Source of the DNA: Candidatus Buchananbacteria bacterium
Lineage (GTDB): Bacteria; Patescibacteriota; Patescibacteriia; 2-01-FULL-39-33
Length of the DNA stretch: 55,488 bases
Reading direction: 5' to 3'
NCBI GenBank assembly: GCA_903863425.1
Contig: CAIPBY010000086.1
Location: forward strand, 1 to 55,488
Shown: positions 952 through 49,885 of the stretch, piece by piece
How positions within the stretch are numbered: the stretch's first letter is position 1
How the letters are laid out: each line of letters begins with the position of its first letter
The notes under the pieces: generated by a model
Seen by the model: only the letters and a program-made list of their open reading frames with translations
Told to the model about the DNA's origin: nothing
Database searches by the model: none
Position numbers and translations under genes: made by a program

Positions 952-3900
952 TTAAGACTTCCCAAACAACTTTCCGATTGAAGTGAACAAATTATTTATC
1001 CAAGTGCCTATGGCAATTTCAACTTTATCAATAACATTCAATTGCTTTTGTTCGGAGGCGCCGGCGACACGAGGTTGGGATTGTTGGCTTGCGATTGATT
1101 TTGTAGCTGATTGATTACTTTTCGCGGAAGAAGCAGTCCAAGTGAAGTGCCAGCCATATTTTCCGACCTTGCTCTCATCACTATCTAATATAAGGGGTCT
1201 AGGATCATCAGTAGGAGTAATGGCGTACCACTTATTTGCACCCTTTTCTCTAACTTTAAGATAAAAAAGGTTATTTATGTAAAATATTTGATCATTACGA
1301 GCTACGGAGCCATTTTTATTAAAAATTCCAAATTCAGCCTCACTCCCTTCATTATCACAATTTAAAATCCAATGTCCTTGAGTGGCACTACCGTCTTTAT
1401 TAATTTTCATATTTACTCCTCTGCCACCACAACTGAGAATAAAAGTTTTACCATTAGTGCCAACAGTATCTCCATCATTAGAAGATCCAACAACATGACC
1501 GATCGTAAATTGGTCATAAACATCAGTCTGAGTCCGACCATCTTTGGCACACAATGATTTATCTTTATTTCCTGGATTTATATCCTTACACCAATTAATA
1601 CTACTATCGGGAGTAACCACGCCATGACCATCTAATTGTAAAGCCACAGTATCCCCAACTAAGACCGGACAAGCTGAATTAGTAGCCCAAGTATCACCAT
1701 TGCCTCTGCAACATACTCCAGATGGAGTGCAGGTCTTAGCCACATCTTTGGTATCATTTCTATTACCAACCGGGAGACTACCGCTAGCATCGCAAGTTCC
1801 GCAAAAGACATTTCCCCCTGTACATGTATACCCGTCATTTACACTACAATCAGTGGCACCACAAGATCCAGGATTTGTTTTTTGCCAAGTCGGTTTATTG
1901 GCAATTTTGGTACAATCAACGGTACCTCCACCACCACCTCCGCAAACTCCGGCAGTACAAGTTGGAGTAGGATCTGTGCAACCATTATCGCTTACGCAAG
2001 TCAAAGTACCACCACAACCGTCATCAAGTCCTGTGTCACAAATATTCTGATAATCCGTAGCACATGTCTTGAGATTAGGACAATTTTTGAGTGTACATTT
2101 ATTCGCGCCAGAACCATCACTACCGGCATGTCCATAACAGTTTGAATCACCATTAACTCCCTTATCACAAATTTCCTGTGGCGTATTCGTGACATTATCT
2201 CCACAAAAACTATAAGCCTGCGAATTCTTAGTACAACTAATAGGTTTACAATAATTAAATGTATCGCCAGCAAAACCCTTGGCATCGTCGTATTTATATG
2301 GACTATCAGTATTTATTAATAAACAAACAAACGGATTACCTCCAGTTAGCCAATTAGTACTATCAGTCCCGCAATCACACTTCTCATTATTAGGAGCATC
2401 AGATTGAAGGATACCATCTCCGCAAGAACCGGCGGCACACTTATTGTCGCAGGTGTTGGTAATATATAGACCGCTGGTATTTTCTACGCAGGTATTGGAA
2501 GGACCGGTGCAACCATAATGCTTAACCGGACATTTCTTTTTGCAAGAACCGCCCTCAGAATAACAGTAAACTGATGTAACACCATCGCTACTACATATTT
2601 CCCTATGGTTGGTACAATTTGTCGAAACGCTACACGATTCTACTGTAAGTTTTTTACAGTCACCAGTACACATGGCGCCTCCATCACATTCCTCATAAAC
2701 ACCGGCCGAATTTGGCGTATCTGTCTGGCCATCCCCGCAAAAATGATCTGGCAGAGGATGTATTCCATTATCCTCGCATTGTACATCACAACTAGGTGGA
2801 TTTTGCGAGCAATCTGGAGTTGATGGTTTTATATGAGCATTATCGCCACAAGGATTTGTATTATTTACGCAACTATTATCTGTATATGTACCGCATTTCC
2901 CTATCCAATGATCAACGATTTTACAACTATTACTGCAATGATCATTATCCACAGCATTACCGTCATCACATTCTTCACCACCATCTCCATCTCTATTACT
3001 ATCTCCGCAATATCTATAAGCTATATTATCTGTAAAGCCACTGCAGGTACTATTGCAACTACTATATTTCTGGCCTTTCTTGCTGTTATCATATAATGCG
3101 TTTGGAGTAGACGGTGGTGTACCATTGCCATTATAAGTCACGCAAGGTTTCGCCATCATTGATAACTCATTCTGATTCTGAAGCGTTATACTCCCCCATG
3201 TGCTTCCACAATCGCATTTCTCGCCGAATCTTGCCATAGTATCTGGCCTGTCTAGGCCTTCCACTTTGCCGTTACCGCAAGTCATGGGTTGGCAAGTCTC
3301 TTGGCAGGTGCGAGCGGTCTCAGACCGAACAGAATCGCAAGCAACTTCCGTGTAAAAATCATATAAACCTGAATTGCCTGATCTGCTGGCGGGCGCATAT
3401 ATTATTTCACAAGTATTAGTTAAATTCGCGCACCTGCCTTGTCCCGGATTTTCCGCTCCCTCTGTACAATCACGTTGTATCGGCGGGTCTCCTCCTATGC
3501 ATTTACCCTGGCAAACGCCAGTCGTCTTAGAACAATTGCCATCGGGTGTTTGACCGAGTAGTAAACAACTTGGCGTAAGGTCGCTACAATTTGTTGCTGT
3601 ACCATCACCACATGTGACGAAGCTTACCTGCTGGCACTGATGGTCACTGCCGGGAAGCTCGCAACAGCTAGGGAGACCGCAGGTAGGAACCAGAGGATTA
3701 CCCCTCTTAAATTCACATGTCTCAGGAGGAGTGAAAATCCCATCTCCGCAGACAACCTGGGGATCTTCTCCTTGGCAAGCAAATCCAGTTGTGCATTGAC
3801 AGCTAGCCGAACAACCGCTGTTGCCTTCTCCATTTTGCTTTCCCTTGCAAGTTCTTATATCGCCTGTACCGCAATCACATTCCTCGTGCGGTCCTTTAAT

Positions 3901-6900
3901 TCCATCACCGCAGACATTGAGATCCTGGCAGGTGCTAAATTTAAAATCTGCCCCCAGATTAAATACGGCAGGAGTAGGGGTGGATTCACAGCTGAGACCG
4001 GAACCGAAACCGCATCCGCAATCTATCCAGCAGGATTTGCAATCTTCGGGGGATCCGTTGATAACCGCTTTATGTTGAGCGGCAAAGTTATTAGCAATAA
4101 GAGAATAAACTCCATTAGCAGGCGGGTTTTGCAAACCATCATTGCAATATCCATCACCGCAATTTATATCAGCTCTATTGAAAGCTTCAGGATGATACCC
4201 GCCAAAAGGATTATATCTCATCAAATTCACACTCTCCCAAGTCGGTCTCCATTTATCTCCATTGGCATCAAATTCTCCATGGGCAAATAAACCATATCCC
4301 GTGCCATTCATCAGGGCGCTATAGAAATAAACCGAGGAACTGGATTGTATAGAGCTGAACATAGTCGAGCTGGCCACATTCCAGCAAGTGCCCGAATCGA
4401 ATGGCGAGACACAGCCGAATAACCTGTTTATCGGATCAACCGGCAAGCCGAAGCCCAGAAGCTTGGATAAATTATCCTGCCAAGACGGCCAAACACTGAA
4501 AGTTCTATTGGGAATATAAGTGCCGGAAGAAAGATTAGGATAATAATTGGAGCAAGTGCCTCCGCCGTAGCAATCATGGCCGTCATTGCACAATCTGTAC
4601 TGATCATTACTGCATCTCTTCTTATTATAAAAACTATTCAATAAATAATTCACATCCTGGATGTCGGAGAGACGCTTGGTATCGCGAGTCAAGCTGGCCT
4701 TGGAAGAACTGCAGTAGCCCGCGCCCAAGCTATGGCAATCGGAATCACTCAAGCATGGAGGCTGGAAGCCATTACTACAAACAGAAGATTTAGCAGATAT
4801 CAGGACGCAAGTGCCCAAGTCCTGCTTCAAAGCCGGCTGATCGTTGTATTTCCAATCACAATCGGAATTAACTTTGCAAGCATATTTGATGGCGCCACTG
4901 CACAAACCGATGCTTTCGTCCAATCCGCCATTGGCTTTGGTGCCGGCATTGAAACGCCAATTATTCACCATTTGATTGCAGATACTGACGGCATTGGCAT
5001 TAGCGCCCTCGCTATATGACATCAAGAAAATATCACCGAAAATATTGCCTGCAATAGATTCAGTTGGCGTAGTAGTATTTATGTCCGTGGCATTGGCATA
5101 AACCGTTCGCCCGACACTGATGGCATCATAATCGTCTATGGATAATCCCTGGACGCCGGAAGCTCCATTGAAAGTATTGCTATACCAATAATACGGCGAA
5201 TAATGATTGTTGTTGGTCATCACCCTGATGCCGATGGCATCACTGTTGTAGGAATAAAGCTTGAGGTTATAAATAGTTAAATTGGAATCAACTGGTGGTG
5301 CATAACAATCATTAGTCCAATGCATAATTATCTTGTGCGGGCCGTTGGTCAAATCAAATGAAGCGGTGCGAGTGGTCTGAGGGTCATCGGGATTAGTCGC
5401 TATCGGAGTAATCGTATCAATTAAATTACTTTCTGATGTAGTAGCATCCACATATACCTCTACGTTGTGATAAACCTTATTGTCGGTAGTCGTGCAATTA
5501 CCCAGACCACTTCCAGTTAATGGATAAGTTATATTACTGTCATTAGAAGTTTCCAAAGTTAAATTGTACTGTCCAGCCGTGGTAGTGCCAAGATTGAAGG
5601 TAACTTCAGAACCAATAGCAGCATCCCAGTCTCCGTACTGAACTAATCCTCCAAGAGTACTGCTAAATTGGACTTTATATTTATTAGTTGATGCCGTATA
5701 AAATATAGCCTCACTCCCCAACAAAAATTGAACCGGAAATTGGTTATTGGAAATAAACAAGAAATCCTTCACTTTGCGGTCGCAAGTCTTCTCAAATTCA
5801 TTATTGGCTGAATAATTTATGCCATCAAATGATTTATAACTCTTCTGGCCATCCCACAAAATTATATTATTGCCTTCAACATAACCCACATCTGGGTTGA
5901 AGTTGGCGGGCAAGCCGTTAATGACAGTAGGACGATCGACAGCCACCCAACCAGGATTATTCTGATATAATTTACCGCTTCTATCCCACATCTGAGCATC
6001 TATTCCAGCATCTATTCCAGTTTTATAATAAGCGACCGCAGGAACAACTTTATTCGCAGACATATCTTTAACAATGTCTACTAATGCCCAGCTGGTCCCG
6101 CTAGGATAATGCGTGCCCTTACCGAATGCATCCCATAAACTAATTATACCCCCTGCTCCTGGATGATAATACCCGCCATAAGGTCTAAATCCTTTGGGCA
6201 GTCCTTTGGATATTGTAGCTGTATTTTTTGTCCACCTCTCATTAGCGCCAACAGCATGAGAATACTCATACATATTCCCATCATAATCCCAAAGCTGAAC
6301 TACTTTATTTGTGTCATCATAATACCCTACGGTCGGACCGAAATTCGGTGGCAAGCCCTTCTCGGCCAAAGCGCCTCGAGAAACCAGAAGCCAGCCCGTA
6401 TTACTGCTCGCATAAACCACACCACTAGCATTCCAAAGATAAGTCGTAGAAGACGCGCCGTCGTAATACCCTACTCTAGGTGTGAAATCATTGGGAAGAT
6501 TAGGACAAGTCGAAGTGCCCAAGCCGGATACGGCCGCTTTCCAACTGCTGGAAGCGTTATTGTACGAGCCGATGGCTGGCAGATCATCCGCGGTATAGAG
6601 CTGACAGCTTCCACCCGAACAATCCGCATTGGTTTTGCAAGCACTGCCACCGTTGGTACCACCCACACAGACATCCATGGTCCCGGCATCACGGCAATAC
6701 CAAGTTTCGAAGTTAGTATTCACGCATCCGCCATAAGCGCAATTGTCGGCAGAATCCGAGAACAGAGGATTCCTCGTGCCCGGCCAAGGATTCTTGCAGA
6801 ACATGATTCTAATATCCACGGTGGTGCTGGCTCGAGATGATATATTGTCGCCAATTCCGCTTCTAATTCCGTTATTAGCATTTATATATAATTGAGAGCG

Positions 6901-34339: not shown

Positions 34340-34461
34340 AGTGGTTATATTATAACAAAATTTTTAATTTAAAACAATTTAGAACCTGCCCAAAACTTGC
34401 CAAAATCCGATTCTTTTGCTAAAATATAAAAAGCTAAAATATAAGCGATAAATAAAAGTAT

Positions 34462-34534
34462 CGCGGGGTAGAGCAGTTGGCAGCTCGGCGGGCCCATAAC
34501 CCGCAGGTCGCCGGTTCGAGTCCGGCCCCCGCAA
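34462..34534 (+). tRNA. Initiator tRNA-fMet (CAU)
   Basis: CGCGGGG-TA-GAGC-AGTTGGCA-GCTC-G-GCGGG-CCCATAA-CCCGC-AGGTC-GCCGG-TTCGAGT-CCGGC-CCCCGCA-A. It has the C1-A72 mismatch and three G-C pairs at the base of the anticodon stem, both initiator hallmarks. Position 33 reads C rather than U. No CCA is encoded. Confidence 0.85.
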
Positions 34535-34545
34535 CAAATTAATTT

Positions 34546-34680
34546 GGCAGGGTAGCTCAGTGGGTCAATGCGACCACAGGAAAGCATTGACAGGGCAGGA
34601 GCGAAGCTAGTCCGGTAATCCGGACGACGCTGAGAGTAGACAAATGTAATCATTTGGCTCTGCCCAGGAAGAGCAGAGGA
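34546..34680 (+). pseudogene. 5' fragment (positions 1-31) of the downstream tRNA-Met, interrupted in the D loop by a 107-nt structured insert; possibly an independent ncRNA
   Basis: 34546-34563 (GGCAGGGTAGCTCAGTGG) and 34671-34680 (GAGCAGAGGA) are identical to the tRNA at 34707. The 34564-34670 insert folds on paper into GTCAATGC..GCATTGAC, GGGCAG..CTGCCC, GTCCGG-TAAT-CCGGAC and CAAATG-TAAT-CATTTG. No anticodon 3' strand or T arm follows. Confidence 0.5.
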
Positions 34681-34706
34681 TTTAAAAATTAGAAAGTAAA
34701 ATATAT

Positions 34707-34778
<72 letters not shown>

Positions 34779-34791
34779 CTGGGTGTAATCA

Positions 34792-34873
34792 GCCCGAGTG
34801 ATGAAATTGGTAAACATGCACGACTCAAAATCGTGTGCCGAAAGGCTTGAGAGTTCGAGTCTCTCCTCGGGCA
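34792..34873 (+). tRNA. tRNA-Leu (CAA), class II with a long variable arm
   Basis: GCCCGAG-TG-..-CACGA-CTCAAAA-TCGTG-TGCCGAAAGGCT-..GAGAG-TTCGAGT-CTCTC-CTCGGGC-A. Confidence 0.85.
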
Positions 34874-34874
34874 C

Positions 34875-34905: not shown

Positions 34906-35484
34906 TTAACTCTTATTAATTCCCACGAGTTCAATAAAATCTTTTGCATTTTTTGTGATTCTAATCGTATACTTATCCTTCCTATTCAATTGTCTATGAA
35001 TTTGTATATTGGGTTTAAACCCGATTTCTTTAATCATTTCTACAACATCTTTATGTAAATTTGGTATTATGGTGACAAAATTTACCATTACATATTTCCT
35101 GTCAAAATAAATTGAGCCGTCAGTTTCAAATAATCCCCTAAGACATTTTAAAGTAAAATCCTCTTCAAATTTTATCCAATCCGGCACTGAAACCTTTTGA
35201 TTATATTTTGAGCCGTCATTGGCCTTCCATCCCAGATATTCTTCTAGTTTATTGGAATAGCAACTGATATCCACACAATTATCTCCTCTATTTATGATTG
35301 AGATCTTATTCTTGGGTAAAATAATTTTTAATGAAGATATAATATTTTTTATAATATTCTCATATTTCTTGTCGCAAGTTATTCTAAGTCTAACTGCCCG
35401 ACCATTGGGGTTAGAAAGATTACCATCTCCCAAGGCAATCCCAATAATATAAGCTAGATGATTTTTATGCCCTCCTAATGACAT
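34906..35484 (-). CDS. Free-standing double-motif LAGLIDADG homing endonuclease
   Basis: 192 aa. Motif 1 is LAYIIGIALGDGNL and motif 2 is LRGLFETDGSIY. Confidence 0.8.
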   Translation of the reverse strand: MSLGGHKNHLAYIIGIALGDGNLSNPNGRAVRLRITCDKKYENIIKNIISSLKIILPKNKISIINRGDNCVDISCYSNKLEEYLGWKANDGSKYNQKVSVPDWIKFEEDFTLKCLRGLFETDGSIYFDRKYVMVNFVTIIPNLHKDVVEMIKEIGFKPNIQIHRQLNRKDKYTIRITKNAKDFIELVGINKS

Positions 35485-42929: not shown

Positions 42930-43317
42930 GGGGATGTATGTTTTGATAGAGAGCCAATTATAAAATGGCAAGCCGAGCTTGATAATATCTCGTTAAACCA
43001 TTATCAACTATATAAGTGCCAAAAACTTATTGGCAAAGGTAACATCCGCTTTTAGTGGATTAGCTTTTGCTCCTGCTATTGCCTAATTTAGGCCAAAATA
43101 GCCATCGCCCCATCCATTTCTCATAAGTGGTAAGCGGTGTTATATTATGAGAATCGACAAGGATCATGCCCTTTGAAACTTGTTTAAACTTAAAGGGATA
43201 GGCTTATATTATTTTGCTCTTTTCTCAAATATAAGCTAAAATATTATAAAAGAGCGAAAGCTTGTGAACCTATTTATAGTTTCTTTCTAGACAGGAGCTC
43301 ATTACTCCTCATCTCCA
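42930..43317 (+). ncRNA. ssrA: tmRNA (ssrA)
   Basis: It starts 26 nt after the smpB stop. The 5' GGGGATG pairs with the 3' CATCTCC, including the G3-U70 wobble. There is a T-arm-like AGGAG-CTCATTA-CTCCT. The candidate tag ORF at 43018-43086 is GCC AAA ... GCT ATT GCC TAA (AKNLLAKVTSAFSGLAFAPAIA*). No CCA is encoded. Confidence 0.7.
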
Positions 43318-43324
43318 CGGGCAA

Positions 43325-49727: not shown

Positions 49728-49758
49728 AGGAATACAATAATGACCTAAATTACTAGAT

Positions 49759-49885
49759 TCTAGTGACATGGTCGCAAGTCCAGTTAGACATGAAGAACCC
49801 ATCATGTGTTTTTTGTCTAACTGGCCGTTTCGGGAAACCGAAATGAGTGGCGCAAGTCACTAGACTCACGTGGTGGGCTTTTTGA
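49759..49885 (+). ncRNA. Structured 5' leader or small RNA with mutually exclusive helices and GNRA tetraloops
   Basis: TCTAGTGAC (49759-67) pairs with GTCACTAGA (49856-64). CCAGTTAGACA (49780-90) pairs with TGTCTAACTGG (49813-23). TTTCGG-GAAA-CCGAAA is a hairpin. GTGGC-GCAA-GTCAC competes with the first helix. CCCATCATGTG (49798-808) pairs with CACGTGGTGGG (49868-78), followed by CTTTTT. Confidence 0.45.

Follow-up and report, generated by a model that had tools for sequence, protein, structure and literature searches.

A conserved structured repeat lodged in tRNA gene copies of a Patescibacteria family and its possible nature as a selfish mobile element

According to our analysis, the insert that splits a duplicated tRNA-Met fragment at positions 34546 to 34680 of contig CAIPBY010000086.1 from a Candidatus Buchananbacteria bacterium (assembly GCA_903863425.1; the whole 55,488-nt stretch analyzed is called the window) is a copy of a conserved structured repeat that is common in one family of Patescibacteria. 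This element, which we named E, is protein-less and combines a hairpin at its 5′ end (hp0) with a three-way junction, spanning about 85 to 110 nt overall. We think that E is probably a selfish, non-autonomous mobile repeat, comparable to MITEs (miniature inverted-repeat transposable elements) as well as Rickettsia palindromic elements (RPEs) and co-transcribed with the tRNA operon that harbors it. Full-text searches of the literature found no description of the element, which apparently has not been described so far.

The first-pass annotation of the window, made from the letters of the DNA, had described the 5′ part of a tRNA-Met as duplicated and split by a structured insert, and both direct reading and blastn against the organism's own genome confirmed this arrangement. 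The first 18 bases of tRNA-Met (GGCAGGGTAGCTCAGTGG) occur identically at 34546–34563 and at 34707–34724, and a second piece (AGAGCAGAGGA) is exactly shared by 34670–34680 and 34726–34736. This second repeat had been rightly called exact but was numbered 22 to 31, while it corresponds to linear positions 20 to 30 of the tRNA, or 21 to 31 in standard numbering. The insert between the two pieces (34564–34669/70), previously given as 107 nt at 34564–34670, is about that size, amounting to 106 or 107 nt depending on whether A34670 is counted, and contains no open reading frame (ORF). As the annotation had stated, the 3′ side of this pseudo-copy shows neither an anticodon 3′ strand nor a T arm nor an acceptor 3′ strand, and neither ARAGORN nor the Rfam tRNA model makes a call at 34546–34681. 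The element and its immediate surroundings are arranged as follows.

34546..34563, plus strand: pseudo-copy of tRNA-Met positions 1–18 (acceptor 5′ strand, D-stem 5′ strand, D loop up to G18 G19)
34564..34591, plus strand: hp0, the 5′ hairpin of the element (strands GTCAATGC and GCATTGAC)
34593..34671, plus strand: three-way-junction core of the element (by covariance model R1, covariation, and invariant junction bases; see below)
34670..34680, plus strand: pseudo-copy of tRNA-Met linear positions 20–30 (D-stem 3′ strand and anticodon-stem 5′ strand)
34681..34706, plus strand: AT-rich spacer between pseudo-copy and intact gene (by sequence reading)
34707..34779, plus strand: intact elongator tRNA-Met(CAU) (ARAGORN; Rfam, 69.4 bits)

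The piece at 34670–34680 is able to close the element in a D-stem with 34555–58. By reading, the spacer at 34681–34706 partly resembles the spacer of the corresponding copy in another genome (G008) as well as the upstream flank of the empty site in a genome of the same genus (G001).

The insert had been folded on paper into four helices, and this number stands, although comparison with the relatives led to the correction of one helix, in which the partner of CTGCCC is an internal GGGCAG. The two hairpins capped by identical UAAU loops are as originally described. The resulting structure of the window copy is given below.

34564–34571 with 34584–34591, plus strand: hp0 helix
34593–34598 (GGGCAG) with 34660–34665 (CTGCCC), plus strand: P1, the closing helix
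34610–34625 (GTCCGG-TAAT-CCGGAC), plus strand: P2, extended by AGC 34605–07 with GCT 34629–31; a variable hairpin in the family
34641–34656 (CAAATG-TAAT-CATTTG), plus strand: P3, with a two-pair extension (A38 G39 with C58 U59)
Junctions, plus strand, by sequence reading: J1/2 GAGCGA; J2/3 GAGAGU; tail AGGA

The folding energy of the segment is −50.8 kcal/mol, compared with −35.4 ± 3.1 for 200 shuffles (z = −5). In the minimum-energy fold, the acceptor 5′ strand pairs with CUCUGCC and thereby mimics the closure of a tRNA; we rejected this pairing as coincidental on the basis of the family consensus, since P1 in the other copies is GGGCAG/CTGCCC whatever the tRNA.

The 1.12-Mb genome of the organism (G000) was searched by blastn, followed by 60 relatives and by scans with a covariance model, R1, whose structure was written down from an alignment of ten compact copies (A2). 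The core of the insert was found in many of the 60 relatives, several times per genome, and its center recurs beside other tRNA genes, which answers in the positive the question of multiple copies raised by the first-pass annotation. In its own genome, R1 detects six copies, all beside tRNA genes (Gln-UUG, Arg-UCG, Lys-UUU, Arg-UCU, Gly-GCC, and the Met of the window), the window copy (34593–34671) scoring 45.6 bits with E = 6.9e-9. Within the taxonomic family, 28 of 34 genomes are positive, with 1 to 22 copies each, many of them at contig ends, and the 6 copy-free genomes are 86 to 100% complete. Among other families of the class the element was present in 6 of 40, and in a phylum-wide even sample, to which stricter filters were applied, it was present in 1 of 150 genomes. 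The named metagenome-assembled genomes (MAGs) that carry the core are labeled Candidatus Moraniibacteriota, Parcubacteria group, Paceibacterota, and Kerfeldbacteria.

When the window copy and eight canonical copies were compared with Rfam 15 at gathering and E-value thresholds, no family matched, the families covered including tRNA, YrlA, hammerhead, twister, twister-sister, pistol, hatchet, HDV-like, and group I and II introns. The best sub-threshold overlaps, with YrlA (20 bits; threshold, 69) and twister-sister (19.8 bits; threshold, 34), both rest on tRNA parts. Searches of IMG/VR, the INPHARED phages, and the PLSDB plasmids likewise gave no match to the element. The insert thus recurs in several copies, is conserved, is missing at the corresponding site of the closest relative, and fits none of the known RNA families, which means that it is neither the unique, unconserved fragment nor the already known RNA that the first-pass annotation had named as outcomes against its proposal.

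That the fold is under selection is indicated by an alignment of 113 copies (A3). This alignment was fitted to the model, which favors the structure, yet the margin is very large: 98.3% of helix cells hold standard pairs, 16 of the 17 pairs show changes on both sides (326 cells), none of 500 shuffles reached the observed values, and sliding the partner strand as a control lowers pairing to 26–45%. G-U/U-G cells outnumber A-C/C-A cells by 42 to 11, an excess which identifies the tRNA-sense strand as the folded strand and which would be true for RNA or single-stranded DNA alike. The most conserved part of the element is its unpaired junction and loop bases (82–100%), with two A's of J1/2 (A-A-G-C-G-A) at 100%, the G-A after P2 at 99%, and the P3 loop (G-A-C-C, three to five free bases, G-G-A) at 82–100%. 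Such a combination of covarying helices and fixed junctions marks a nucleic acid for which three-dimensional shape is important.

The window copy matches the three-way junction of the family, with GAGCGA as its J1/2 (AAGCGA in the family) and GAGAGU as its J2/3 (GAGnGU), and it retains all conserved junction bases. Its P3 is capped by a UAAU loop, and the usual P3 loop module, GA-CC-ACA-GG-AAA, sits in hp0 instead (34572–34583). The pattern of this module (GA-CC-N3-5-GG-A) is passed by 101 of the 113 copies; the window copy is one of the 12 that fail, most of which are off by one base, with L142, L143, and L106 being without the module. Relocation of the module to hp0 is found in the window copy alone among the 113 aligned and in one more copy outside the alignment (G026, L019).

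Placement of E relative to tRNA genes is equally regular. Within 300 nt of a tRNA gene lie 71 of the 113 copies, mostly 20–75 nt off, and all 71 are on the tRNA strand. Local alignment of the flanks to the neighboring tRNA defines the following classes.

Class D, 17 copies: tRNA(1–19), E, tRNA(21 to ~31), spacer, intact tRNA
Class V-up, 12 copies: tRNA(1–48), E, decaying rest of the tRNA, then intact tRNA
Class V-down, 10 copies: intact tRNA, E without the 5′ half of hp0, tRNA(49/50–76)
Class T, 35 copies: intact tRNA (a terminator-like hairpin often being present), its T arm/acceptor as an inverted copy, core lacking hp0, additional hairpin, GGCGGAA, tRNA(~57–76) as a direct copy
Fifth class, away from tRNAs, 35 copies: bracketed by CCTCCCC...GGGGG and GGAGGGG

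The insertion sites in tRNA copies are three fixed positions: in the D loop following G18 G19, where the variable loop meets the T stem, and in the T loop. The window copy belongs to class D, as it meets the tRNA at the D position, resumes at 21, and is followed by the intact tRNA on the same strand. Class D involves tRNAs for Met (also in G008 and G020), Asn, Gln, Glu, and Ile, with the same 1–18 break point throughout. The 5′ junction of E is always GG/GUY, and a GG stands before hp0 in every D, V-up, and non-tRNA copy. Each class has its own fixed length of duplicated tRNA (18, 47, 24–27, or 14–17 nt) and the duplicated outer flank varies between 0 and 29 nt (in the window, 4 nt), which makes one side exact and the other ragged. 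In class T, closure is by a helix that mirrors the acceptor and T stems. A tRNA-lodged element always has an intact copy of that tRNA next to it, which means that the cell keeps a working gene. At the class D loci of tRNA-Asn in other genomes, a near-consensus promoter (TTGACA-17-TAATAT) is situated upstream of the pseudo-copy, and no more than 12–18 nt of duplicated flank belong to the intact tRNA. A simple target-site duplication was considered and rejected: E is not placed between two copies but within the first repeat unit, with tRNA positions 21–31 coming after it.

Comparison of orthologous sites reveals considerable turnover. The same-genus genome G001 shows no sign of the insert, its cluster running tRNA-fMet, 16-nt spacer, tRNA-Met, tRNA-Leu, and the tRNA-Met site is also empty in G004, G005, G006, and G007; it is filled in G008 and G020, which belong to other genera, by a class D copy at exactly the same place. 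Since presence at this site varies within genus g1 and within genus g7, the element must have been gained or precisely lost several times. G000 and G001 differ at at least three tRNA loci. Away from tRNA genes, comparison of G020 with G007 shows one copy as a clean insertion of 130 nt in the former, and at an orthologous site filled in both of these genomes the elements are 73% alike and the flanks 85–91% alike. The cores of D- and V-class copies cluster neither by class nor by tRNA. E also occurs in frame and stop-free within protein genes, namely, a reverse-transcriptase gene (L097, G008:C7:27940–28810), to which it is antisense, and a GT4 glycosyltransferase gene (L166:1757–3013, G007:C43), in which it lies in sense; with its G-rich flanks, an in-frame element adds ~45–65 extra residues. 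Patchiness, turnover, remnants, and gene-internal copies are the habits of a selfish repeat.

Two further loci came to our attention. At L165 (G007:C31:~61386–61635) the dnaK-dnaJ spacer is filled by two tandem copies on the strand of the genes. At L039 (G008:C16) an ORF of ~130 amino acids (aa) with AT-rich repeat flanks is placed between tRNA-fMet and the tRNA-Met pseudo-copy; by eye it resembles the four-helix-bundle “23S rRNA intervening-sequence” proteins.

The surroundings of the element in the window bear on its expression. The neighbors of the tRNA cluster are parB, parA, a LAGLIDADG ORF, an ORF of no assigned function, and a GT4 glycosyltransferase gene, and the remaining features of the locus are listed here.

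34397..34425, plus strand: promoter-like site upstream of the tRNA cluster (TTGCCA, 17 nt, TG-n-TAAAAT; 10/12 consensus matches, extended −10)
34462..34535, plus strand: initiator-type tRNA-Met(CAU), first in the cluster (ARAGORN; Rfam tRNA model, 58.6 bits)
34792..34874, plus strand: tRNA-Leu(CAA), last in the cluster (ARAGORN; Rfam tRNA model)
34906..35484, minus strand: free-standing LAGLIDADG endonuclease ORF, 192 aa (PF14528, E = 3e-10); a neighbor, not part of the element

On the plus strand, no terminator-like site was found from the promoter-like site to the end of tRNA-Leu. Given this and the promoter-like site upstream, the element would be co-transcribed with the tRNAs and is very probably part of a tRNA-fMet/tRNA-Met/tRNA-Leu precursor transcript. 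The endonuclease gene downstream of the cluster, to which the first-pass annotation had drawn attention, is real, but a connection with the insert finds no support: homologues (29–34% identity) are present in only 4 of 33 related genomes (5 of 34 with its own genome), do not co-occur with the element, and are lacking in every relative with the equivalent tRNA-Met insert, G008 among them. As the ORF is absent from the same-genus G001, it is deemed a separate insertion in its own genome.

Other tRNA-related features were observed in this genome. Apparent remnants of E occur at C75 ~2420–2476 (tRNA-Ala(CGC)) and C100 ~3675–3730 (tRNA-Thr(UGU)), where a copy of the tRNA's own first 12 bases, with TCCGCCnnnGGCGGACAGGCAG after it, stands 56 nt upstream; the TCCGCCnnnGGCGGACAGGCAG stretch looks like hp0 plus the 5′ strand of P1 (AGGCAG), i.e., a 3′-truncated element. 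A different, second type of insert, a long GC-rich hairpin (CCGCCTCG...CGAGGCGG), interrupts partial tRNA-Arg copies after position 13, within the D loop, on the minus strand at C11 ~6690–6790 and C13 ~2130–2255, and the C13 pseudo-tRNA has an additional hairpin in its anticodon loop. At C36:11297–11722 a partial tRNA-Glu (~positions 1–37, with a GC-rich hairpin insert) is located upstream of the intact tRNA-Glu(UUC), with an 84-aa GIY-YIG nuclease ORF (PF01541, E = 7.5e-16) between the two. Elsewhere in the window, ARAGORN overlooked two tRNA-like genes on the minus strand. The one at 27376–27470, scored at 48.3 bits by the Rfam tRNA model, is normal in its acceptor stem, D arm, and T arm and encodes the CCA but has a 29-nt hairpin-containing segment in place of the 7-nt anticodon loop, and the one at 27291–27358 (32.6 bits) is without a proper D arm. 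Rfam also calls a tmRNA at 42930–43320 (plus strand, 100 bits) and a LOOT RNA at 49742–49861 (plus strand, 89.9 bits).

E lodges in copies of tRNA genes, on the tRNA-sense strand, at the fixed D-loop, variable-loop/T-stem, and T-loop positions, and if it is a selfish repeat, as we favor, its invariant junction and loop bases would be what some machinery, or the nucleic acid itself, recognizes. Once at a tRNA, it may spread between relatives or be precisely lost via homologous recombination, the duplicated tRNA segments around it providing the homology for both precise loss and transfer. Of the origins proposed by the first-pass annotation, a small mobile element or insertion remnant fits best; a tRNA-derived noncoding RNA finds no support, since the tRNA origin is limited to the flanks and the insert is independent, being found also far from tRNA genes and inside protein genes.

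Several observations weigh against a selfish repeat. The tRNA duplications are not of the simple target-site kind. The cores of one genome's copies are only ~76–85% similar, yet almost all are perfectly paired, and compensatory changes are seen even where one tRNA-Asn site is compared between copies of different genera. Each copy thus seems to be under selection, which is unusual for dead transposon copies and fits a useful RNA. Furthermore, none of the candidate mobilizing enzymes follows the element. Reverse transcriptase is encoded in 23 of the 34 family genomes with no correlation, being missing from the copy-rich G001, G027, G030, G003, and G006 and present in copy-free genomes; the IS200/IS605 Y1 transposase occurs in 9 of 34 genomes, not in G000, and does not track the element; the IS110-type DEDD transposase, which works with a bridge RNA, occurs in 0 of 34; and the LAGLIDADG homologues behave as described above. 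In this search, which covered Y1, IS110-type, and reverse transcriptase proteins, no autonomous relative or transposase for E was found.

Alternatively, E may serve the host as a small functional RNA module, for example one that binds a protein or makes tertiary contacts, possibly with a kink-junction-like core, and be carried on tRNA operons. The tRNA-like scaffolds (closure by the D-stem, mimicry of the acceptor/T-stem minihelix) would then allow transcription, trimming, and stabilization by the tRNA-processing enzymes, and the partial tRNA copies would be handles, not scars. We regard this as possible but distinctly the less likely explanation. In its favor are the nearly invariant junction and loop bases next to covarying helices, the same orientation of all 71 tRNA-linked copies, the reproduction of acceptor and T stems by the closing helix of class T, and the loop module of the window copy, which was relocated from P3 to hp0 and not lost. 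The strong promoters upstream of pseudo-copies, which place E in the tRNA leader, argue in the same direction, as do the perfect pairing of diverged copies within a genome (76–85% alike), the compensatory differences between genera at the tRNA-Asn site, and the failure to find a mobilizing enzyme among those searched. Against it, 6 of the 34 family genomes, at 86–100% completeness, are copy-free and copy number ranges from 0 to 22, the tRNA that carries a copy varies between species of one genus, truncated remnants and copies within protein genes (one antisense) exist, and many T-class copies stand behind a terminator-like hairpin.

More broadly, E might be a new functional structured nucleic acid, either a catalytic, self-inserting RNA or a protein-recruiting module on tRNA-like scaffolds, although we would give this slightly less weight again and consider it unlikely. 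In the self-inserting version the targets may be the elbow and variable pockets of tRNAs, and in the protein-recruiting version Patescibacteria may graft the module for expression and processing. If such a function were real, the invariant junction (the tandem G-A next to P2 and the GA-CC...GG-A loop) would be an active or binding site instead of a transposase signal.

It is improbable that E moves at the RNA level, in the manner of a ribozyme or intron, entering exposed tRNA loops and returning to DNA via reverse transcription and recombination. Its insertion points do coincide with exposed loops of a folded tRNA (D loop after G19, end of the variable loop, T loop), its sense orientation is strict, one junction is precise and the other ragged with hp0 5′-truncated in V-down copies, and at some loci only one of the two tRNA 3′-end copies has an encoded CCA. 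However, the copy-rich G001, G027, G030, G003, and G006 are without reverse transcriptase; RtcB (PF01139), which a cleave-and-religate route would need, is found in 1 of 34 genomes, not G000, leaving 33 without this ligase; no Rfam ribozyme or intron model matches; and one ORF-internal copy is antisense. A spliced tRNA intron, whether self- or enzyme-processed, was also rejected: the second exon is incomplete, full-length interrupted copies elsewhere are degenerating, and this decay implies that E is not spliced out to yield a working tRNA.

Even less probable is that the locus is the attL/attR footprint of an integrase element once inserted in tRNA-Met, with E as leftover cargo or as an attachment-site arm. 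Direct repeats of a tRNA segment flank the insert and an intact gene is regenerated, as with tRNA-targeting islands, but there is no integrase in or near the insert, the unit is only ~160 nt, the same core is found at non-tRNA sites, and the break point is in the D loop, whereas the tyrosine-integrase sublocations reportedly distinguished by Williams in 2002 are the anticodon loop, the T loop, and the 3′ end. Lastly, a chance duplication of the tRNA 5′ part decaying around random filler would explain a truncated pseudo-copy that cannot make a tRNA, but it is refuted by the match of the filler to R1, built from other genomes (E = 6.9e-9), by the same tRNA position in other genera, and by z = −5.

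Patescibacteria have tiny, strongly reduced genomes of ~1 Mb, and despite this reduction about one-quarter of the tRNA genes in the genome studied here are accompanied by remnants of themselves that contain structured inserts. A protein-less element with a precise fold kept across genera, three exact tRNA positions, and no visible mobilizing enzyme among those searched points to either an unknown type of DNA or RNA movement or an unknown RNA function linked to tRNA transcripts. In practice, such elements interrupt MAG assemblies, give rise to spurious partial tRNAs, and add peptides to proteins, and a covariance model for E would improve genome annotation in candidate phyla.

Among known systems, the theta (minimal HDV-like) ribozymes are small structured RNAs preferentially adjacent to phage tRNA genes and co-transcribed with them (PMC10879173). 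E is likewise small, structured, and preferentially adjacent to tRNA genes; in that account, however, theta ribozymes directly abut the tRNAs and have an HDV-like fold, whereas E lies 20–75 nt from the intact tRNA, inside a pseudo-copy, and has no Rfam ribozyme match. The mobile tRNA introns of Thermoproteales are short, non-coding, and spread among tRNA genes at non-canonical positions (Fujishima et al. 2010, summarized in PMC10714607). With these E shares a short non-coding sequence found across different tRNA genes in loops other than the anticodon loop. As portrayed in that summary, the introns are cut out by the archaeal splicing endonuclease and the interrupted gene is the functional copy, while the copy interrupted by E is truncated and decaying, an intact copy stands beside it, and the host is a bacterium. 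Tyrosine-integrase tRNA islands and prophages resemble E in the duplicated tRNA segment, the preserved intact tRNA, and the fixed orientation. Unlike them, E forms a unit of 100–200 nt without an integrase, with break points in the D loop and variable loop, an inverted tRNA end in class T, and a duplication that often reaches variably into the flank.

With MITEs, E has in common its many non-coding copies and its filled and empty sites in relatives. It differs from them in that the 18–22-nt direct repeat of the window does not bracket the element, E lying within the first repeat unit, and terminal inverted repeats, a MITE trait, are present in the non-tRNA subclass only (CTCCCCC...GGGGGAG). 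From the RPEs and the MITE-like repeats in general (Correia/NEMIS, RUP, ERIC), E is set apart by its three-way junction, its near-invariant unpaired bases, and its heavy compensatory covariation across genera, by its three exact positions in tRNA copies, always in the tRNA sense, and by partial tRNA duplications instead of short TA-type target duplications. It resembles them all in being a gene-less, multi-copy, patchily distributed sequence of ~100–150 nt with a strong predicted fold. RPEs reside in tmRNA and RNase P RNA genes and are fused in frame in proteins, their mobilizing enzyme being unknown (PMC2229807), and in the same manner E is found both in frame in protein genes (the reverse-transcriptase and GT4 glycosyltransferase genes) and within RNA genes, here the copies of tRNAs.

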